Below are positions 3,919 to 63,243 of a stretch of 64,000 nt of DNA, piece after piece. The position numbers and the translations under genes are program-made. Location: NCBI RefSeq assembly GCF_030384885.1, contig NZ_CP128613.1. One strand, 5' to 3'. Every line of letters begins with the position of its first letter. The stretch's first letter is position 1. The notes under the pieces are model-generated. The model had not been told where the DNA came from, ran no database searches, and saw only the letters and a program-made list of their open reading frames with translations. This DNA is from Escherichia coli (GTDB lineage Bacteria; Pseudomonadota; Gammaproteobacteria; Enterobacterales; Enterobacteriaceae).

Positions 3919-4899
3919 ATGAATATGGAAGAAATTGTGGCCCTTAGTGTAAAGCATAACGTCTCGGATCTACACCTGTGCAGCGCCTGGCCCGCACGAT
4001 GGCGTATTCGCGGGAGGATGGAAGCTGCGCCGTTTGATGCGCCGGACGTGGAAGAGCTATTGCGGGAGTGGCTGGATGACGATCAGCGGGCAATATTGCT
4101 GGAGAATGGTCAGTTAGATTTTGCCGTGTCGCTGGCGGAAAACCAGCGATTGCGCGGCAGTGCGTTCGCGCAACGGCAAGGTATGTCTCTGGCATTACGG
4201 TTGTTACCTTCGCACTGTCCACAGCTCGAACAGCTTGGTGCACCACCGTTATTGCCGGAATTACTCAAGAGCGAGAATGGCCTGATTCTGGTGACGGGGG
4301 CGACGGGGAGCGGCAAATCTACCACGCTGGCGGCGATGGTTGGCTATCTCAATCAACATGCCGATGCGCATATTCTGACGCTGGAAGATCCTGTGGAATA
4401 TCTCTATGCCAGCCAGCGATGTTTGATCCAGCAGCGGGAGATTGGTTTGCACTGTATGACGTTCGCATCGGGGTTGCGGGCTGCATTGCGGGAAGATCCC
4501 GATGTGATATTGCTCGGAGAGCTGCGTGACAGCGAGACAATCCGTCTGGCGCTGACGGCGGCAGAAACCGGGCACCTGGTGCTGGCAACTTTACATACGC
4601 GTGGTGCCGCGCAGGCAGTTGAGCGACTGGTGGATTCATTTCCTGCGCAGGAAAAAGATCCCGTGCGTAATCAACTGGCCGGGAGCTTGCGGGCAGTGTT
4701 GTCACAAAAGCTGGAAGTGGATAAACAGGAAGGACGCGTGGCGCTGTTTGAATTGCTGGTTAACACACCCGCGGTGGGGAATTTGATTCGCGAAGGGAAA
4801 ACCCACCAGTTACCACATGTTATTCAAACTGGGCAACAAGTGGGGATGTTAACGTTTCAGCAGAGTTATCAGCAGCGGGTGAAAGAAGGGCGCTTGTGA
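3919..4899 (+). CDS. yggR: PilT-like type IV pilus retraction ATPase homologue
   Basis: 326 aa from ATG at 3919 (MNMEEIVALSV); Walker A GATGSGKST; divergent from yggS. Confidence 0.85.
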   Translation: MNMEEIVALSVKHNVSDLHLCSAWPARWRIRGRMEAAPFDAPDVEELLREWLDDDQRAILLENGQLDFAVSLAENQRLRGSAFAQRQGMSLALRLLPSHCPQLEQLGAPPLLPELLKSENGLILVTGATGSGKSTTLAAMVGYLNQHADAHILTLEDPVEYLYASQRCLIQQREIGLHCMTFASGLRAALREDPDVILLGELRDSETIRLALTAAETGHLVLATLHTRGAAQAVERLVDSFPAQEKDPVRNQLAGSLRAVLSQKLEVDKQEGRVALFELLVNTPAVGNLIREGKTHQLPHVIQTGQQVGMLTFQQSYQQRVKEGRL

Positions 4900-4930
4900 C
4901 GTTGCTGTGTCTGATACGAATTGTAAACAT

Positions 4931-5025
4931 GCCCGATGCGCAAGCTTATCGGGCCTACAAGGGAAGCGTAACTTTGAATTCGCACTCACCGTAGGTTGGA
5001 TAAGGCGTTTACGCCGCATCCAACA
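4931..5025. repeat. BIME (two REP units) downstream of yggR
   Basis: gcccgatgcgcaagcttatcgggcctaca and gtaggttggataaggcgtttacgccgcatccaaca REP-type palindromes. Confidence 0.6.
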
Positions 5026-5072
5026 TGAAACAACGCGCACATTGTCAGAAATCTGTGCGCTAGTAAATCGCC

Positions 5073-5489
5073 TTAATATCCCTGCTCGAAGTAACTTTCG
5101 AGAATAATAACCGCAGAGGCAGAGTCGACTTTACCTTTGTTGAGCGCCCGATAGCCGCCCTGTTCGAACAGACCGGAGCGCGCTTCCACGGTGCTAAGCC
5201 GTTCATCATGGAGCTTAACTTCAACACCAAAACGGCCATGAATACGATTGGCGAATTTACGCGCCCGGGCAGTCAACGGTTGCTTGGTACCGTCCATATT
5301 CAGCGGCAAACCGACGATAATTTCGTCAGGTTGCCACTCTTTCAGTAAACGTTCGATGAGATTCCAGTCCGGTGTACCGTCCTGCGCTTTAATTGCGGGC
5401 AGTGGGCGAGCGGTGCCGGTAATGCGTTGTCCGACCGCTACGCCAATGCTTTTAGTGCCGAAATCGAAGGCGAGTAAGGTTCCACTCAT
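5073..5489 (-). CDS. ruvX: Putative pre-16S rRNA nuclease / Holliday junction resolvase-like protein (YqgF/RuvX)
   Basis: 138 aa from internal Met [20 protein letters not shown] of a 180-aa ORF; start ATG shares one nucleotide with the yqgE stop (TGATG). Confidence 0.85.
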
Positions 5490-6052
5490 CAGGCATGCCC
5501 TGCCACACCAGGCATGGTGAGAATATCCACACCAATCAGTTTTGCCGCATCGCGCCAGCGGTCGGCAATCGGCGTTTTGAACAGAATATTCAGATCTGCT
5601 GGGGCCGTTAGCCACGCGTTATCGAGAATTTCTTGTTCCAGTTGACCTTTCTCCCAGGAGGCATAGCCCAGAGCCACCAATACGTCAGACGGTTGTTTAT
5701 CGGTGCCGAGCGTTTCCAGCACATCGCGGGAAGTGGTCATCACCGTGTTGTCTGAAATGCGAATGCTGGAAGCAAAATTGGAGGGTGGAGTATGCAAAAT
5801 AAACCCACGATCTTCCGCCAGCGGGCCGCCGAGCATAACCGGTTTATCCAGACGGATTGATTCATCACGCGGCTCCGGCGTGATCTTCAGCTTTTCCAGA
5901 ATCCCTTCAATTTTGAGATTTTCCAGTGGCTTGTTGACGATGATCCCCATTGCACCATTGGCATTATGTTCGCAAATGTAGACCACGGAACGACGGAAAA
6001 TCGGATCCTGGAGAGCAGGCATGGCAATAAGAAAGTGATGCTGTAAATTCAT
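5489..6052 (-). CDS. yqgE: UPF0301 protein YqgE
   Basis: 187 aa from internal Met [17 protein letters not shown] of a 211-aa ORF; synteny with gshB and ruvX. Confidence 0.85.
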
Positions 6053-6160
6053 TGTCAGAGGTTCTGTTTCCTGGTTCAAAAAAGCAACAGCGCCCAGTAT
6101 GCGTGGAAAGAAGGGCACTGTCACTCAGAGTCTCAACGAGATCCTTCTCGCTAAGGTGGG

Positions 6161-7111
6161 TTACTGCTGCTGTAAACGTGCTTCGATGGCATCCATTAAC
6201 ATTCCGGTGATCGACACCGGAAACTCTGCTTCAATCTCACGAATACAGGTTGGGCTGGTGACGTTAATTTCAGTCAGACGGTCGCCGATGATATCCAGAC
6301 CAACAAAAATCAGCCCTTTTTCTTTCAGCGTCGGTCCGATCTGACGGGCGATTTTCCAGTCACTTTCCGTCAACGGACGAGGTTCCCCGCGACCACCGGC
6401 AGCCAGGTTACCACGGGTTTCGCCGCCTTGTGGAATACGTGCCAGGCAGTACGGTACAGGTTCGCCATCCACCACCAACACGCGTTTGTCGCCATCTTTA
6501 ATGGCTGGCAGGTAATTTTGCGCCATGCAGTAGCGAGTGCCATGCTCAGTCAGGGTTTCGGCAATCACGCCGAGGTTTGGATCGCCTTCTTTCACGCGGA
6601 AAATCGACGCGCCGCCCATACCGTCAAGCGGTTTGAGAATGATGTCGCTGTGTTTCTCCCAGAACGCTTTCAGCTGTGCTTTATTGCGCGTAACCAGCGT
6701 TTCTGGCGTTAAGTCAGAGAACCAGGCGGTAAACAGTTTCTCGTTACAGTCGCGCAGGCTTTGCGGCTTGTTAACGATCAGCGTCCCTTTCTCTTCGGCA
6801 CGTTCCAGAATATAGGTCGCGTAGATAAACTCGGTATCAAACGGCGGGTCTTTACGCATCAGGATCACATCGAGATCGGCCAGCGGCAGATCCTGTTCAC
6901 CGACGAACGAAAACCACTCTTCGTAGTTCTGCTTCACGTTCAGCGTGCGGGTATGGGCGCGGGCTTCGCCATTGATCAAATACAGATCGCCCATCTCCAT
7001 ATAGTGAAGTTCGTAACCACGACGTTGTGCTTCCAGCAACATAGCGAAACTGGAATCTTTCTTGATGTTGATGCTTGCGATGGGGTCCATCACGATGCCG
7101 AGCTTGATCAT
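6161..7111 (-). CDS. gshB: Glutathione synthetase
   Basis: 316-aa ORF MIKLGIVMDPIASINIKKDSSF...; ATP-grasp family; exact expected length. Confidence 0.95.
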   Translation of the reverse strand: MIKLGIVMDPIASINIKKDSSFAMLLEAQRRGYELHYMEMGDLYLINGEARAHTRTLNVKQNYEEWFSFVGEQDLPLADLDVILMRKDPPFDTEFIYATYILERAEEKGTLIVNKPQSLRDCNEKLFTAWFSDLTPETLVTRNKAQLKAFWEKHSDIILKPLDGMGGASIFRVKEGDPNLGVIAETLTEHGTRYCMAQNYLPAIKDGDKRVLVVDGEPVPYCLARIPQGGETRGNLAAGGRGEPRPLTESDWKIARQIGPTLKEKGLIFVGLDIIGDRLTEINVTSPTCIREIEAEFPVSITGMLMDAIEARLQQQ

Positions 7112-7123
7112 TATTCTTCTCCG

Positions 7124-7855
7124 TTAGCCCAAATCGCCAAAACGCACTTGTAGCGCGGTAATGGCGGTGAGTGCAGTTGTCTCAGTACGCAAAACGCGAG
7201 GTCCCAACAGGATATCAGTAAATTGATAGCGGGCAGTCATGGCAATTTCATCTGCCGATAAACCGCCTTCCGGGCCAATTAGCAGGCGGACGCGTTCAAC
7301 CGGTAACGGCAACGTATTGATGCTGTTACTGGCGCGCGGGTGAAGATTCAGTTTCAGTCCTTCATCCTGCTCTGCACACCAGGCTTCCAGATCCATCGCT
7401 GGACGGATTTCCGGCACCCGGTTACGACCACACTGCTCACAGGCAGCAATTGCAATCTTCTGCCACTGCTGGAGCTTCTTGTTCAGACGTTCACTATCCA
7501 GTTTAACGCCGCAACGCTCAGAAAAAAGTGGCGTAATGAGGCTTACACCGAGTTCGATCGATTTCTGGATCGTAAATTCCATTTTTTCGCCACGCGACAT
7601 CACCTGACCGAGGTGAATATGCAGCGGAGATTCACGATCGTCGAGTTGGCCTTCCAGCACTTTCACTTCCACGCTTTTTTTGCTGGCGCTGGTAATTTCG
7701 GCGTCAAAGACCTGGTTGCTGCCGTCAAATAATTGCAACGCCTGCCCCGGCCCCATACGCAGTACGCGCCCGATATGGTTGGCGGCATCTTCGCAAAGCG
7801 CGATGTGAGAATGGCTGGTCAGTGGTTCAGGATGATAAATGCGGGGGATACGCAT
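7124..7855 (-). CDS. rsmE: 16S rRNA (uracil1498-N3)-methyltransferase
   Basis: 243 aa from internal Met [12 protein letters not shown] of a 252-aa ORF; synteny. Confidence 0.85.
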
Positions 7856-15261: not shown

Positions 15262-15993
15262 ATGAAAAAATGGAAAGTACGTAGCGCGTTGGTGGCATTA
15301 GTCGTGCTGCTGGCCGGTTGTTCCAGTAATGCGCAGTATAATAGCAGTGCATCGGGCAATGTCGGCACCGCCTGGGGTGGGGATGTGCACTCAACGGTTC
15401 AGGGCGTATCTGCTGAACGAGCCTGGCGCGATCCGGCAGAGATGATCGTTATTAGTTATTCGACTAATGTTCCTTCCGGCTACGACCGCGTTTATAGCAT
15501 TCGTATTAACGAACTTGAATATGCTATTCGCGATGGTAATTTTAATTCTCTACCTATTACGCGGGTTTATAATTCATCAGGTAAAGAACTACGCTATATA
15601 GTCCATGCCAGAGTAGGAATGAATTACCAATTATATGTCCGCAATTACAGTCGTAACACCAACTACGAGATCGTTGCGACAGTTGATGGCCTGGATGTTC
15701 TCAATGGTAAACAAGGTTCCCTGAATAACAACGGCTATATTGTGAATGCCGGGGATTCGTTGGCGATTAAAGGATTCCGCAAAGATAAACATACCGAAGC
15801 GGCTTTTCAGTTCGCCAACGTTGCTGATTCCTACGCAGCCAATTCGGCGCAAGGCGATGTGCGTAATATCGGTGTAATCGGCTTTGCCGCCTTTGAATTA
15901 CAAGGCCCGGCGCAAAACGCGCTGCCACCGTGCTCTGGACAAGCGTTTCCGGCGGACAACAATGGCTATGCGCCGCCACCGTGTCGGAAATAG
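15262..15993 (+). CDS. Predicted lipoprotein of unknown function (accessory gene between speA and speB)
   Basis: 243-aa ORF; signal peptide plus lipobox LLAGC-SS; Asn/Tyr/Ser-rich mature part; own terminator downstream; AT-richer than neighbours. Confidence 0.7.
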   Translation: MKKWKVRSALVALVVLLAGCSSNAQYNSSASGNVGTAWGGDVHSTVQGVSAERAWRDPAEMIVISYSTNVPSGYDRVYSIRINELEYAIRDGNFNSLPITRVYNSSGKELRYIVHARVGMNYQLYVRNYSRNTNYEIVATVDGLDVLNGKQGSLNNNGYIVNAGDSLAIKGFRKDKHTEAAFQFANVADSYAANSAQGDVRNIGVIGFAAFELQGPAQNALPPCSGQAFPADNNGYAPPPCRK

Positions 15994-20240: not shown

Positions 20241-20266
20241 GGGCCGCGAAAGCGGCCCTTTTTTTA
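20241..20266 (+). terminator. Rho-independent terminator of tktA in the convergent gap
   Basis: gggccgc-gaaa-gcggccc hairpin followed by ttttttt; T-run overlaps the stop of the convergent SPFH gene. Confidence 0.55.
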
Positions 20267-21172
20267 CTTAGTAGAGATAAACGGAACTGTACTGCCGGGG
20301 ATCATGGTATCGGGTAGCTTACCGTCCCAACGCTCAGCAGTGGTGAGGGCAACAAGTCCGGGATTATCCCGCAGAGCTTCACCGCGCAGGCGGATCGCTT
20401 CTGCTTCAGCCGCACTTTTTAAACGAATAGTTTCAGCCTCTGCCGCGCCTCTTACGCGAATAGTCTCAGCTTCTGCTTTGGCTGCCGCCAGTTTACTGTC
20501 TGCTTCTGCCTGGGCCTGAGTTACCGCTATTTGCGCCTGGATTTTCTCTGTTTCCAGATTTTGCTTACGTGTGGCAATGGCGACTTCTGCTTTCATTCGA
20601 TCTTCAATCGATTTTTCATAAGCGTCAGAAAAATCAATATTTTCAATCTGGACACCATCAATCACCACCGGGCCAACAACGGCTTTACGCATTGCATTTT
20701 GCAGATCCTGAACCAGTTTTGTACGATCCTGTACCGCGCTGATGGCGGTATATTGGCCGAAAACGTTCTCCAGTTGAGTTGGCAACTGACGGACAATCAG
20801 ACGATCTTTTAATGCTTCAATGGTGTTGTAGGTGGTATAAACCGCGCCTGCTTCTGAAGGTTTAATGTGGAAGCTGACTGATACTGTCATTTGTGCCGGT
20901 TGCTGGTCGCGGCTGTAGGCCTGTAATCCCTGATAAACCACAGCCTGATTACGCGTGGAAATTTTCTCTACGCTTTCCATAAAAGGGATCTTAAAACCCA
21001 GACCCGGCTCGGCAACTTTTACGATTTTTCCGTAGCGCAGCAAAATGCCGCGTTCACCTTCATTAACGGTGTAATACGAGAGAAATGGCAGCACAACCAC
21101 GGTAAGCACGCCAATGGCGATAGCAATAGATTTTTGTGGGCGAAATGAGGTTATTGAAACAGGTGCTTTCAT
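20264..21172 (-). CDS. SPFH/band-7 (prohibitin/HflC-like) membrane protein, standalone
   Basis: 302-aa ORF; N-terminal TM helix SIAIAIGVLTVVVLPFLSYY, SPFH core, C-terminal Ala/Glu-rich coiled coil with repeated AEAETIRxxG units; RBS aaggaag 9 nt upstream. Confidence 0.8.
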   Translation of the reverse strand: MKAPVSITSFRPQKSIAIAIGVLTVVVLPFLSYYTVNEGERGILLRYGKIVKVAEPGLGFKIPFMESVEKISTRNQAVVYQGLQAYSRDQQPAQMTVSVSFHIKPSEAGAVYTTYNTIEALKDRLIVRQLPTQLENVFGQYTAISAVQDRTKLVQDLQNAMRKAVVGPVVIDGVQIENIDFSDAYEKSIEDRMKAEVAIATRKQNLETEKIQAQIAVTQAQAEADSKLAAAKAEAETIRVRGAAEAETIRLKSAAEAEAIRLRGEALRDNPGLVALTTAERWDGKLPDTMIPGSTVPFISTK

Positions 21173-26192: not shown

Positions 26193-26902
26193 AAATTGAC
26201 TTAACGGTGAATGGTCTGAAGGTACAAGCACAGTACCATGTTGATGAGATAGAAAATGTACATAAACCGTTGCTGCGTATGTTGGCGGCCTTACAGACGG
26301 TAAATCCGCAGCGGCGTACCGTGGTTTTTCTTTGCGCTCCGCCGGGGACGGGTAAATCTACCCTAACCACTTTCTGGGAATATCTCACGCAACAAGACCC
26401 GGAACTACCCACTATTCAGACGCTGCCGATGGATGGTTTTCACCATTACAATAACTGGCTGGATGCGCATCAATTGCGCCCCTTTAAAGGCGCACCAGAG
26501 ACATTCGATGTGGCAAAACTGGTGGAAAATCTGCGCCAGGTAATGGAAGGGGATTGTACGTGGCCGCAGTACGATCGACAAAAGCATGAGCCTGTTGAAG
26601 ATGCGTTGCACGTTACCGCACCACTCGTCATCGTCGAAGGAAACTGGTTGTTGCTGGACGACGAGAAGTGGTGCCAGCTTGCGCAATTTTGTGATTTCTC
26701 GATCTTTATCAACGCGCCAGCTACTGCGTTGCAGGAACGACTGGTGGGGCGCAAGCTGGCGGGAGGGTTATCGCTGGCAGACGCAGAAGCCTTTTATGAC
26801 CGTACCGATGGGCCGAATGTTCGCCGGGTGCTGGAAGAGAGTCTGCCTGCAAATTTGACCTTAATGATGACCGCTACGGGTGAATATCGTCTGGTGGATT
26901 AA
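26189..26902 (+). CDS. yggC: Putative P-loop kinase YggC
   Basis: 237-aa ORF with Walker A PPGTGKST; 4-nt overlap with yggD. Confidence 0.75.
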   Translation: MKIDLTVNGLKVQAQYHVDEIENVHKPLLRMLAALQTVNPQRRTVVFLCAPPGTGKSTLTTFWEYLTQQDPELPTIQTLPMDGFHHYNNWLDAHQLRPFKGAPETFDVAKLVENLRQVMEGDCTWPQYDRQKHEPVEDALHVTAPLVIVEGNWLLLDDEKWCQLAQFCDFSIFINAPATALQERLVGRKLAGGLSLADAEAFYDRTDGPNVRRVLEESLPANLTLMMTATGEYRLVD

Positions 26903-27584
26903 CGTTCCTGATTACACCATCTTCCAGTCGCACCACACGAGAGAAATGACGCCGGGTAAATGCGGCGTCATGACTGATTGCTACGACGCTCGTGCCTCGC
27001 TGGCGGCACTTTTCCAGCCAGCTTTCAAACACGCTCATCCAATTTTCGTCAAAATCCCGACTCGGCTCGTCCAGCAGCAATAGCGGCGGAGAGAGTGCTT
27101 CCAGGCAGGCGACGGCGACCATCCGTCGCTGCGCACTATGCAGATCTAACGGATGCGCGCTGGCAGTGTCTGCTAACTGACAGCATTGCAGGGCAGCATT
27201 GGTACGTTGAGTGATTTCATCCGCCAGGCATTTTTGCAGTTTCAAACCAAATGCGATCTCGTCAGCGACGGTGCTGTGAAAAAGCTGGTTTTCCGCTTCC
27301 TGAAACAGTACGCCAATCTTTGCTGCACGTTGGCGGTTTTTCAGGTTTTTCATCGCCTGTTGTTGCAGTATAACCGTACCGGTTGTGGGCGTAAGAAGAC
27401 CTGCCATTACTCGTAACAGCGTCGATTTTCCCGCGCCATTGTCGCCGGTCAGCGCCAACCATTCACCTTGTTTGAGTTGCAGAGAAATGTCGCAAAGACA
27501 ATCCGTTGCCGCGCCAGGCCAGCGATAAGACATCTGATTTAACGTTAACATAGTGGCTGGAGCGCTCCGTTTTGCAATTGCCAC
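26874..27584 (-). CDS. ECF/ABC transporter ATPase subunit (A2-like, degenerate signature motif)
   Basis: 236-aa ORF (alternative start Met12 at 27551, overlapping upstream stop as ATGnTAA); Walker A GDNGAGKST, Walker B LLLLDEP, H-loop ISHD; signature LHSAQRR instead of LSGGQ; 3' end overlaps yggC convergently. Confidence 0.75.
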   Translation of the reverse strand: MAIAKRSAPATMLTLNQMSYRWPGAATDCLCDISLQLKQGEWLALTGDNGAGKSTLLRVMAGLLTPTTGTVILQQQAMKNLKNRQRAAKIGVLFQEAENQLFHSTVADEIAFGLKLQKCLADEITQRTNAALQCCQLADTASAHPLDLHSAQRRMVAVACLEALSPPLLLLDEPSRDFDENWMSVFESWLEKCRQRGTSVVAISHDAAFTRRHFSRVVRLEDGVIRNVNPPDDIHP

Positions 27585-28228
27585 GCTTGCTGGCAGTAGT
27601 TCAGGAAAGGTGTGCGATGACGTTCAAAAAGAATAATCAGCGAACCACGTTCAAACGCCCAGTGTTGTAAGCGCTGCAACAGCATTTCGCTGGCCTGCGG
27701 CGTCAGGCGACTAAAGGCTTCATCAAGAATTAATAGTTTTGGCTGCATCGCGATGGCGCAGGCGATGACCACGCGCTGTGTCTCTCCACCGGAGAGTGTT
27801 GCCGGGTGACGATGGCGCAACGGCTGGCACTCGGTCAGAGTCAGGGCGGCATCAATCCGCGCCATAATCTCCTCTTCAGCAAGACACAGATTTTCTGGCC
27901 CAAAGGCAACTTCTTCTTCCACGCTAAAGGTACAGCCGGAGAGCTGCAAATAGGGCGATTGCTGAACGAGCTGGATGGTGGCGGATTGTTCATTAAGCGG
28001 GAGATACCCAATGGGCGTACCGAGAAGCGTCCCCGTGCCGGTTATCTCTCCTGGCAGAAAGTCCGGATACCAGCCCGCCATCAGTTGCGCCAGCGTACTT
28101 TTGCCACAGCCGTTGTCGCCAAAGATGGCGACTATCCCCGGTTTGACATAGTGAAAGTCATAACAGAACGGAGGGTGCGTTGAGTGTGTCGGGCAATAGC
28201 GAAACTGTTCTAACGTAACCATATCCAC
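27545..28228 (-). CDS. ECF/ABC transporter ATPase subunit (A1-like)
   Basis: 227-aa ORF; Walker A GDNGCGKST, signature LSGGETQR, Walker B LLILDEA. Confidence 0.75.
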   Translation of the reverse strand: MDMVTLEQFRYCPTHSTHPPFCYDFHYVKPGIVAIFGDNGCGKSTLAQLMAGWYPDFLPGEITGTGTLLGTPIGYLPLNEQSATIQLVQQSPYLQLSGCTFSVEEEVAFGPENLCLAEEEIMARIDAALTLTECQPLRHRHPATLSGGETQRVVIACAIAMQPKLLILDEAFSRLTPQASEMLLQRLQHWAFERGSLIILFERHRTPFLNYCQQAWQLQNGALQPLC

Positions 28229-28917
28229 GCTCCGAATTCTGCCAGCATCAGCAAGATCATGGCGTAACGTGCCACTTTTTCCAGGTTACTGTCAGGCGGT
28301 GCCCATAACGTAGTGCGCCGGTTGTGGATCCGAAATGCCCGCATATCCAGCGCCGCACCACGGATAGCCAGATCGTTTAGCGCATTGTGTGTTAGCGGAA
28401 TAATTAGCGCGGGTATAGCACGTAAACGCTGATACCAGCCCTCATCCAGCGGCACGCCACGGGCGCGCTGCGCTTCATGAATAATCGCTAATTGCCGTTT
28501 TAACTGCTCAACGACCAACAAAGGCCCGGCGAACAGATAAGCGACGCCCGGCGGCAGGCGAGAAGCAAACAAAGCGCGGATAAAACGTTGCACTGGGACG
28601 AATTGCATCCACAACTGCGAGGTTGAAACAATCGCGAGAATCCGCAGCCAGAGCGTAATAGCATGCGTCCACCGTTCTGGCGAGCGTGGCGTGCCGTTTA
28701 GCCATTCTGTCAGCCAGCCACCGTGTACCAGCCACAGTCCAGCCCCCAGCGAGAACATCAGCCAGACAACATATTTTGCCCGCCGCCGCGTGGCCTTTAG
28801 CGCAATAAGGCAGAAAAAGGTCGCCGCGCTATAGACTGTCAGTATTGTCTGTGTGGGCAGGATAAGCGTGGTGCAGGCCGCCAGCGCCCACAGCGTTAGG
28901 GATGTAAACGGATGCAT
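28210..28917 (-). CDS. ECF transporter transmembrane (T) component, CbiQ/EcfT family
   Basis: 235-aa polytopic ORF with C-terminal AQRARG and AIRGAALDMRAF motifs typical of EcfT; start abuts stop of upstream gene. Confidence 0.75.
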   Translation of the reverse strand: MHPFTSLTLWALAACTTLILPTQTILTVYSAATFFCLIALKATRRRAKYVVWLMFSLGAGLWLVHGGWLTEWLNGTPRSPERWTHAITLWLRILAIVSTSQLWMQFVPVQRFIRALFASRLPPGVAYLFAGPLLVVEQLKRQLAIIHEAQRARGVPLDEGWYQRLRAIPALIIPLTHNALNDLAIRGAALDMRAFRIHNRRTTLWAPPDSNLEKVARYAMILLMLAEFGAWIWLR

Positions 28918-29499
28918 TTAGCGCACGGCAGCCATTGCCGGAAAATGGCGCGTGGTGCGAATCGGCAGCTGACGCAGTAAAAGCCAGACAATCACCGCTG
29001 TAAGAATTTTATCGACCAGGTTTGCGCCTATCACCGTAATCGCCACCGACTCCACCAGGTTTTGCCCCATAGAGTGCATCCAGGCAACGAACAAATCGGC
29101 TCCGCTACCGGTGACACCGCCGAACAGCGCAGTACGCAGCGGTACAGCGACGACCGTTACTGCAAGCGTAATAATCACGCCGCTGACAACGACTTTTGGC
29201 AGGGTGCGAAACCAACCCGCTCGCGCCAGCCAACCGGCGACCAAGCCAATAACCATCGCCACGGGGGCAAAGGCGGCGGCGATCGGGTCGGTGAGCAATC
29301 CCCAGAGTAAATTGGTCAGTAAGCCGGTCAGCATCCCGATCACCGGACCAAGCAGTACCGCGCTAATAAGTGTGCCGATGGAGTCGAGAAATATAGGTAA
29401 TTTGACCATGCTGGCCAGTTGCCCGCCAATCATATTGATGGCGATAGAGATAACAATCAACACCAGTGCTTGACTGGAAAAGTGGCGACGCGCCATAAG
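28918..29499 (-). CDS. ECF transporter substrate-specific (S) component-like membrane protein
   Basis: About 193 aa from Met33 (ORF could start at 29595); about six TM helices; LPIFLDSIGT motif resembling ECF S components (YkoE/ThiW-like); substrate unknown. Confidence 0.65.
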   Translation of the reverse strand, partial: LMARRHFSSQALVLIVISIAINMIGGQLASMVKLPIFLDSIGTLISAVLLGPVIGMLTGLLTNLLWGLLTDPIAAAFAPVAMVIGLVAGWLARAGWFRTLPKVVVSGVIITLAVTVVAVPLRTALFGGVTGSGADLFVAWMHSMGQNLVESVAITVIGANLVDKILTAVIVWLLLRQLPIRTTRHFPAMAAVR

Positions 29500-29518
29500 A
29501 AAACCTCTCTGAAAGTAG

Positions 29519-29950
29519 TTATTTAACGGGGGAAATATGCAATTCGTCGTAACCAGAAAGCGCGCAAGGTTGGCGGCTAAACGCCAGCTCCTCAAGGCAG
29601 CCGATCACCAGTTCAAGCGTGGTCCGCACGGTACAGCCGGGCATCATATGACCGCCAAGTATCGTGCCGTGTGGATCGGAAACGCAGAGATGAAGATGTT
29701 CACCACTCTGTTCCAGTGTGCCGTTCAATGCGATGACTTCGAACTTACCGCTTAGTAGGGCCGTGTTTTCTTGCCCGGCATAGCGTAAGGCGACGTCAGT
29801 CAGACTGCCGGTACAACCTGCAATCCACGCGGCGTGGAGTTGTTGTTGCTGCGCGAAGGCGCGTAATTGGGAGAGAACTTCCTGTCCTGGGAGCAGGCGC
29901 AGCGCGTAAAAGCGTGCGGAGGAAGAATATGGGTAGGGCAATGTCATCAT
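29519..29950 (-). CDS. DUF296/PPC-domain protein (first gene of the ECF module)
   Basis: 143-aa ORF; pattern RLLPGQEVLSQL...AWIAGCTGSL...LSGKFEVIALNGTL...HLHLCVSD...GGHMMPGCTVRTTLELVI fits the PPC (DUF296) fold consensus. Confidence 0.7.
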   Translation of the reverse strand: MMTLPYPYSSSARFYALRLLPGQEVLSQLRAFAQQQQLHAAWIAGCTGSLTDVALRYAGQENTALLSGKFEVIALNGTLEQSGEHLHLCVSDPHGTILGGHMMPGCTVRTTLELVIGCLEELAFSRQPCALSGYDELHISPVK

Positions 29951-36673: not shown

Positions 36674-37570
36674 ATGGACATTTTTATTTCGAAAAAGATG
36701 CGCAATTTCATTTTATTAGCGCAAACCAATAATATTGCCCGGGCGGCAGAAAAAATCCATATGACGGCTTCGCCATTTGGCAAAAGCATTGCCGCGCTGG
36801 AAGAACAAATTGGCTATACGCTATTTACCCGCAAAGATAATAATATCAGCCTCAATAAAGCCGGGCAGGAACTGTATCAAAAACTGTTCCCGGTTTATCA
36901 ACGGCTTTCTGCGATTGATAATGAAATCCATAACTCAGGACGTCGTTCACGAGAAATTGTGATAGGCATAGATAATACTTATCCGACCATTATTTTTGAT
37001 CAGTTGATTAGTCTCGGAGATAAGTACGAAGGCGTGACCGCCCAGCCAGTTGAGTTCAGCGAAAACGGCGTTATCGATAATCTTTTTGACCGTCAGTTAG
37101 ATTTTATAATCTCCCCACAGCATGTATCTGCACGAGTTCAGGAACTGGAAAACCTGACTATCAGTGAACTACCACCGCTGCGATTGGGCTTTCTCGTTTC
37201 TCGCCGTTATGAAGAGCGACAAGAGCAAGAGTTGCTTCAGGAGCTACCGTGGCTACAAATGCGCTTTCAGAACCGGGCCAACTTCGAAGCAATGATTGAT
37301 GCGAATATGCGTCCTTGTGGGATCAATCCCACCATTATTTATCGACCTTACAGTTTTATGGCCAAAATCAGCGCCGTGGAGCGCGGACATTTTCTGACGG
37401 TGATCCCGCATTTTGCCTGGCGACTGGTGAATCCGGCAACGCTGAAATATTTTGATGCGCCGCACAAGCCGATGTATATGCAGGAATATCTTTATTCAAT
37501 CAGAAATCATCGATATACCGCCACGATGCTTCAGCATATTGCTGAAGATCGTGACGGGACGAGTCATTAA
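36674..37570 (+). CDS. ygfI: LysR-family transcriptional regulator YgfI
   Basis: 298-aa ORF; N-terminal HTH; convergent 4-nt overlap with scpC. Confidence 0.8.
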   Translation: MDIFISKKMRNFILLAQTNNIARAAEKIHMTASPFGKSIAALEEQIGYTLFTRKDNNISLNKAGQELYQKLFPVYQRLSAIDNEIHNSGRRSREIVIGIDNTYPTIIFDQLISLGDKYEGVTAQPVEFSENGVIDNLFDRQLDFIISPQHVSARVQELENLTISELPPLRLGFLVSRRYEERQEQELLQELPWLQMRFQNRANFEAMIDANMRPCGINPTIIYRPYSFMAKISAVERGHFLTVIPHFAWRLVNPATLKYFDAPHKPMYMQEYLYSIRNHRYTATMLQHIAEDRDGTSH

Positions 37571-46859: not shown

Positions 46860-46995
46860 TGTAACGGTAAAGCCCTCACCGAAGCGAGGGCTTGAAGGAG
46901 AAGGGTTATGATGCGACTTGTCATCATACTGATTGTACTGTTACTCATAAGTTTCCCAGCTTATTAACAGTCAGTCACAGGGGAGGAGCAATCCT
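46860..46995 (-). ncRNA. sibC: Sib-family antisense RNA (SibC) opposite ibsC; boundaries approximate
   Basis: Placed from the known Sib/Ibs architecture (antisense RNA spans the toxin ORF and its RBS); ends not determined from sequence. Confidence 0.45.
46908..46967 (+). CDS. ibsC: Type I toxin IbsC (19-aa hydrophobic peptide)
   Basis: ATG at 46908, MMRLVIILIVLLLISFPAY, stop TAA 46965-46967; preceded by a gaaggag RBS; in the serA-ygfA spacer where the K-12 sibC/ibsC locus lies. Confidence 0.7.
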   Translation: MMRLVIILIVLLLISFPAY

Positions 46996-47067
46996 CCCTT
47001 ACCCTTACTCACTAAATTAGGTTAAAGAATCAACGATGTCAATCAGGGCGATGCAGGTGTGTCGCCC

Positions 47068-47688: not shown

Positions 47689-47874
47689 AGGGAATCTCCG
47701 AGATGCCGCCGCAGGCTGTAACCCTTGAACCCTTGGTTCAAGGTGAATGTGTCGTCACAGTTTTAAGGCTTCTCGGACGGACCGAGCATGCTCACCAACC
47801 GCGGAGCGCCACATTCTTGTGGTATGAAATATCGGCTCAGGGGACTGGCCCGCTTGCGAACATCTCAGAGAAAT
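47689..47874 (-). ncRNA. ssrS: 6S RNA
   Basis: Reverse complement reads AUUUCUCUGAGAUGUUCGCAAGCGGGCCAGUCCCCUGAGCCGAUAUUUCAUACCACAAGAAUGUGGCGCUCCGCGG...GGAGAUUCCCU, matching the E. coli 6S RNA from memory. Confidence 0.9.

Positions 47875-61170: not shown

Positions 61171-61350
<180 letters not shown>

Positions 61351-62576: not shown

Positions 62577-63243
<667 letters not shown>

Follow-up and report, generated by a model that had tools for sequence, protein, structure and literature searches.

The one-nucleotide overlap of yqgE and ruvX in Escherichia coli is conserved among Enterobacteriaceae species and is consistent with translational coupling

In a 64,000-nucleotide stretch of Escherichia coli DNA (referred to as the window here), the stop codon of yqgE and the start codon of ruvX (yqgF) share a single nucleotide. 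This raises the question of whether the overlap ties the translation of ruvX to that of yqgE or is a by-product of compact gene order, with ruvX being translated on its own. To answer it, we established the anatomy of the junction and the start codon of ruvX, compared the locus among related species, and weighed the initiation signals against what is known about other overlapping gene pairs.

Anatomy of the junction

Direct reading of positions 5487..5491 on the minus strand gives TGATG, in which the yqgE stop TGA (5491..5489) and the ruvX ATG (5489..5487) have the A at 5489 in common, corresponding to a spacing of -1 nt. The two genes share the minus strand, whose sequence across window positions 5520..5460 is ...ACC ATG CCT GGT GTG GCA GGG CAT GCC TGATG AGT GGA ACC TTA.... 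The features of the junction are the following:

5073..5489, minus strand: ruvX (yqgF) coding sequence, 138 amino acids, start ATG 5489..5487, stop TAA 5075..5073 (ORF list, PGAP, Pfam, and PDB)
5489..6052, minus strand: yqgE (AlgH/DUF179 family) coding sequence, 187 amino acids, start ATG 6052, stop TGA 5491..5489 (ORF list, PGAP, and Pfam)
5487..5491, minus strand: TGATG junction, spacing -1 (direct reading; 80/80 Enterobacteriaceae species)
5498..5503, minus strand: SD-like purine tract GCA GGG in yqgE codons Ala184-Gly185 (purine-only third positions and anti-SD duplex)

The PGAP annotation of the near-identical record NZ_CP027579.1, expressed in window coordinates, places ruvX at 5073..5489 and yqgE at 5489..6052. 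The overlap of exactly one A at 5489, which had been proposed in an earlier reading of the sequence alone (the sequence-only reading), is therefore found both in the letters themselves and in the annotation, and the outer gene ends at 5073 (ruvX stop) and 6052 (yqgE ATG) agree with the ORF list. The gene identities given in that reading were likewise borne out by Pfam and PGAP; the minus-strand orientation of the two genes was not mentioned in it. The 138-amino-acid product matches RuvX (PF03652) with an E value of 9.7e-47, profile positions 2 to 134 of 134 aligning with residues 4 to 136, at a score of 159.1 bits versus a curated cutoff of 29.2. The 187-amino-acid product matches DUF179/AlgH (PF02622) with an E value of 7.5e-52 over profile positions 1 to 157 of 157, at a score of 175.9 bits versus a curated cutoff of 27. 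Since both ORFs thus encode full-length family members, the junction is no chance motif; it joins two codirectional protein-coding genes that have exactly one nucleotide common to stop and start.

Start codon of ruvX

The overlap exists only if ruvX initiates at the ATG at 5489, and the sequence-only reading had named initiation at a different codon as the observation that would speak against it. The frame of ruvX in the window indeed stays open for 42 codons upstream, up to a GTG at 5615, which would extend the product to 180 amino acids; alternatively, translation could start downstream of the annotated ATG. For comparison, one genome per species was sampled, taking the best 80 of at least 562 confirmed RuvX matches, all from Enterobacteriaceae and with 83 to 99% identity. 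These 80 loci come from Escherichia, Citrobacter, Salmonella, Enterobacter, Klebsiella, Raoultella, Kosakonia, Kluyvera, Buttiauxella, Cedecea, and other genera; families such as Yersiniaceae and Morganellaceae lie outside the sample, and a published table of COG pairs (see below) was used for breadth.

Among the 81 sequences compared, the GTG at codon -42 is present only in that of the window. An in-frame stop lies 6 to 13 codons upstream of the ruvX ATG in 47 of the 81 sequences, and in 71 of them there is no start codon between the nearest upstream in-frame stop and the ATG, which argues against an upstream start in most species. In the window sequence itself, no other in-frame ATG, GTG, or TTG occurs from codon -41 to codon +29, leaving the first 29 downstream codons without an alternative start, and the downstream GTGs found in other species would remove the conserved N-terminal FDFG segment of RuvX. 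The Pfam domain begins at residue 4 of the 138-amino-acid protein, and the 42-amino-acid upstream extension has no match at all. Furthermore, the E. coli YqgF structures 1NMN, 1OVQ, and 1NU0 were solved for this same 138-amino-acid protein, aligned over residues 1 to 138 with ∼99% identity and two amino acid differences between the window and K-12 sequences. These PDB chains show the complete protein and are no independent proof of its N terminus, because they were expressed from the annotated ORF. The 180-amino-acid ORF from GTG 5615 is thus effectively refuted by the 80-species comparison and Pfam, and the chance that ruvX starts at any other codon, which would make the overlap false, appears negligible. 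Pfam, the solved structures, and the 81-sequence comparison leave ATG 5489 as the only credible start, so that the annotated start of ruvX is confirmed by comparative data.

Conservation of the spacing

The sequence-only reading had suggested conservation among relatives as a check on the overlap. All 80 Enterobacteriaceae species (best 80 of at least 562 matches) keep the -1 spacing, as TGATG in 46 species and as TAATG in 34. In 10/80 species, an extra Ser codon follows the ruvX ATG, and the DNA there still reads T[GA]ATG. The neighboring spacers at the same loci served as controls: the gshB-yqgE spacer takes 51 different lengths between 74 and 366 nt, and the rsmE-gshB spacer ranges from 10 to 158 nt. 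Synonymous sites beside the junction vary as well, with the last Ala codon of yqgE appearing as GCC, GCA, GCG, or GCT and His186 as CAT or CAC.

One explanation of the overlap is that it is a neutral or compaction by-product, with ruvX being translated independently by de novo binding of the 30S subunit at its own SD; the -1 geometry would then persist only because changes must keep both the stop and the start. TRATG and NTGA junctions can arise neutrally, given that after loss of the original stop a start codon provides one in another frame. Against this explanation stand the free change of the neighboring spacers and the invariance of -1 in all 80 species, even though both ORFs would survive the insertion of a single A (TGAATG). 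This invariance suggests selection on the spacing, with the qualification that 80 related species do not amount to 80 independent trials.

In four species (loci L006, L008, L029, and L036, at about position 2498-2503 of each locus), the sequence at the junction is GCATGATG. Here, an additional ATG, in frame and one codon upstream, makes an alternative -4 (ATGA) overlap possible, so that annotation could switch between -1 and -4 with no indel involved.

Initiation signals

An AGGG lies at positions -12 to -9 relative to the ruvX ATG, within the last codons of yqgE (184 and 185), so that the SD-like motif of ruvX lies within the 3′-terminal coding sequence of yqgE. In 79 sequences, the third position is a purine in 100% of cases at yqgE codon 184 and in 99% at codon 185. 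These two are the only purine-only columns among 46 conserved 4-fold-degenerate columns of yqgE, where the mean purine fraction is 0.50, and the other Gly columns mostly have C or T in the third position. Judged from the alignment, the purine-only sites are the signature of apparent selection on an RGGR SD-like motif embedded in the yqgE coding sequence. Together with the fixed distance between stop and start, this suggests that both the spacing and the upstream motif are under purifying selection.

The ruvX SD is ordinary in strength, neither strong nor absent: its predicted anti-SD duplex of -6.0 kcal/mol ranks 26th among 67 genes of the window, with a median of -5.6, and 5.4% of random 18-mers match or exceed it. 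Such an average, conserved motif fits with independent initiation at ruvX, and the same is true for the RNA structure. The 111-nt junction RNA has no structure beyond that of shuffled sequences (minimum free energy of -31.4 versus a shuffle mean of -32.35 kcal/mol; z = +0.31), a fold of equal or lower energy is reached by 121 of 200 shuffles, and both the SD and the AUG are unpaired in the centroid fold. Since the SD is ordinary and no RNA structure within these 111 nt occludes the start, ruvX may also be initiated independently. The conserved SD in itself does not discriminate between coupling and an independent start, because SDs also assist reinitiation in coupled pairs.

The fold bears on a further mechanism as well. 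Of the two accepted models of coupling, one invokes unfolding of the RNA by upstream ribosomes (PMC12548453; PMC6728339); at this locus, a fold concealing the ruvX initiation region would be opened by the ribosomes on yqgE. With the 111 nt around the junction folding no better than their shuffles and the start site unpaired, we consider this mechanism very improbable here.

The overlap leaves no room for a promoter or terminator between the two genes. In a consensus scan, yqgE was free of internal promoter-like sites and 4850..7300 of terminator-like ones; the sole promoter-like match in this interval was the following:

6096..6124, minus strand: sigma-70-like match GTGACA-17-CATACT in the gshB-yqgE spacer, upstream of yqgE (weak; consensus scan)

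This match, read 6124..6096, is not significant, because shuffled sequences give a mean of 1.9 sites. No Rfam family was matched at the yqgE-ruvX locus, and the only matches of the window, SIB, 6S, and naRNA4, all lie elsewhere.

Coupling or independent initiation

We favor, with a probability of roughly two-thirds, the reading in which yqgE and ruvX are consecutive cistrons of one minus-strand operon, joined by a -1-nt UGAUG overlap and coupled by termination-reinitiation aided by the SD, with some parallel de novo initiation. A ribosome terminating at the yqgE UGA would already sit on the ruvX AUG, and contact between the SD and the anti-SD 9 to 12 nt upstream would help the ribosome or its 30S subunit to reinitiate without leaving the mRNA. 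The production of the essential nuclease RuvX/YqgF would thereby be tied to the translation of yqgE, while the same SD probably also supports a degree of de novo initiation.

This reading draws on experiments with other pairs. Among five native E. coli pairs with overlaps, four were found to be coupled by termination-reinitiation, the exception being bioBF, which initiates de novo, and removal of the SD lowered reinitiation in 4/5 pairs (Huber et al. 2019, PMC6728339). When the upstream stop was moved ∼38 nt away, reinitiation dropped by 80 to 100% (Huber et al. 2023, PMC10666635). The finding of coupling in the majority of the short-overlap E. coli pairs tested (PMC6728339; PMC10666635) also argues against a by-product of compaction, while bioBF provides a precedent for an uncoupled overlapping pair (PMC6728339). 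In addition, an algH transposon mutant of Pseudomonas aeruginosa PA14 is viable and a yqgF mutant is unavailable (PMC7950407), a weak hint from another species that yqgF expression may not strictly depend on full translation of algH. Weighing both sides, we regard a neutral overlap with independently initiated ruvX as rather unlikely, and prefer coupling through reinitiation.

For the pair itself, we found no Ribo-seq, start site, or reporter data in the literature consulted; none of the names yqgF, ruvX, and yqgE occurs in the TRAINSPOTTER and INRI-seq supplements, and papers on yqgF together with yqgE contain incidental mentions only. The "tight translational coupling" proposed in the sequence-only reading would therefore seem a reasonable inference and not a demonstrated fact.

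Comparison with known gene pairs

The arrangement is already known at every level, and the overlap is real and ordinary. The commonest spacings between unidirectional genes in E. coli are -4, -1, and -8, with -1 in second place (PMC10666635; review in PMC12548453), and 707 of 2,987 unidirectional pairs fall within -8 to +6 (PMC10666635). The K-12 pair itself, b2948 yqgE and b2949 yqgF, is tabulated at -1 in Table S2 of Huber et al. 2023, which also gives +108 for gshB-yqgE and +12 for rsmE-gshB (PMC10666635). The window, although from another E. coli lineage, has the same genes in the same order with the same -1 spacing, and the flanking +108 and +12 match as well, so that we see no relevant difference from K-12. 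Beyond E. coli, the COG pair AlgH→YqgF has a median spacing of -1, with quartiles of -4 and +3 and n = 369 pairs, in a survey covering 1,695 genomes (Table S4 in PMC10666635). In the distant gammaproteobacterium P. aeruginosa, the predicted operon gshB-tonB3-algH-yqgF has the same gshB...algH-yqgF linkage and differs in that tonB3 lies between gshB and algH (PMC7950407). As a codirectional, conserved pair with one shared base and an SD in the upstream gene, yqgE/ruvX resembles the -1 class in general (Huber et al. 2019, 2023; Brown & Wade 2025). It differs from the category enriched in this class, since YqgE and RuvX are not known subunits of one complex.

The closest classical parallels come from the E. 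coli trp operon, where trpB-trpA and trpE-trpD are likewise consecutive operon genes. Both of these junctions are UGAUG as well. Unlike yqgE/ruvX, the trp pairs code for subunits of a single enzyme complex and have been proven experimentally to be coupled. Among them, trpB/trpA is cited as a classical coupled pair in which downstream translation depends on that of the upstream gene (PMC6728339).

Possible consequences

To our knowledge, YqgE/AlgH has no established function. YqgF is essential in E. coli and has been implicated in 16S rRNA 5′ processing and antitermination, while its Holliday junction resolvase activity is disputed (PMC9601230). It is conceivable, if doubtful, that YqgE/AlgH and RuvX/YqgF (16S rRNA 5′-end maturation) act together, as a cotranslational complex or as stoichiometric partners in ribosome biogenesis. 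Short overlaps are enriched among the subunits of heteromeric complexes, and both YqgE and YqgF are flagged as lying outside known heteromeric complexes (Huber et al. 2023 and its Table S2, PMC10666635). Such a partnership would fit with this enrichment, the fixed -1 in 80/80 species, the apparent selection on the SD, and the adjacency of AlgH→YqgF in hundreds of genomes. If it were true, YqgE would gain a function.

As a discovery, the overlap is of little importance, its spacing being the second commonest in E. coli and the pair already tabulated. It has some relevance in practice. Since ruvX is essential and yqgE is not, disrupting yqgE by deletion, premature stop, or CRISPRi may impair ruvX through polarity or at the level of translation. 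Constructs should keep the last ∼20 nt of yqgE (SD-like tract and stop), and reduced RuvX would be worth checking as a cause of yqgE/algH mutant phenotypes.

Other overlaps in the window

The sequence-only reading had noted that similar junctions recur in the window, which holds for 10 of 46 codirectional adjacent pairs: four overlap by -4, two by -8, and one each by -1, -7, -13, and -20. The individual cases it named were all verified in the window, namely, hemW/rdgB with 8 nt, yggP/yggF with 4 nt (ATGA), yggD/yggC with 4 nt (GTGA), and pepP/ubiH with 4 nt (ATGA). Further tight junctions are yggT/yggU (-4), scpA/meaB (-8), and those among ECF transporter genes described below. A codirectional overlap of 20 nt joins sdhE and ygfX at 62836-62855, and srsR and scpC overlap convergently by 4 nt at 37567-37570. 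All 67 complete coding sequences annotated in NZ_CP027579.1 are intact ORFs in the window.

Relatives and neighboring features of the window

The window is chromosomal DNA of E. coli. The region 4900-7200 is matched by 5,425 of 5,426 complete E. coli genomes and has 99.9% identity to strain 2013C-4282 (NZ_CP027579.1). Over these 2.3 kb, only 1 of the 5,425 matching genomes reaches ≥99% identity, while 5,143 lie at 95 to 99%; this reflects either sparse sampling of the lineage to which the window belongs or reduced identity caused by the REP-rich spacer. The full 64 kb differs from NZ_CP027579.1 by six substitutions and one 1-nt indel. This sole indel is located at ∼45212, just after rpiA, where the window reads GGGGGAATCTCCCCCG and the record GGGGGAATCTCCCCG; the one extra C in the window lengthens the stem of the hairpin 3′ of rpiA.

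Downstream of ruvX, the convergent yggR/ruvX spacer carries two REP/BIME-like palindromes at 4931-5026, and the consensus scan found no intrinsic terminator-like site after ruvX. In strain RMDEC465 (NZ_CM177019.1), an IS621 element of the IS110 family is inserted in exactly this spacer.

Five genes occupy 26874-29950 on the minus strand between yggC and epd, encoding two ABC ATPases, ECF T and S components, and a PPC-domain DNA-binding protein, with junctions of -7, -13, and 0 and a convergent 29-nt overlap with yggC. This block is variable: of 5,426 complete E. coli genomes, only 3,319 cover at least 80% of it; in K-12, yggC presumably adjoins epd directly. Two further coding sequences, a hypothetical one between speA and speB (15262-15993, plus strand) and one of the prohibitin family between tkt and cmtB (20264-21172, minus strand), we take to be absent from K-12 at these positions. 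The three Rfam matches of the window, all at gathering level, are the following:

46892-47042, minus strand: SIB RNA, antitoxin opposite ibsC
47691-47874, minus strand: 6S RNA (ssrS)
61178-61255, minus strand: naRNA4, a REP-derived nucleoid-associated RNA between trhA and ygfZ
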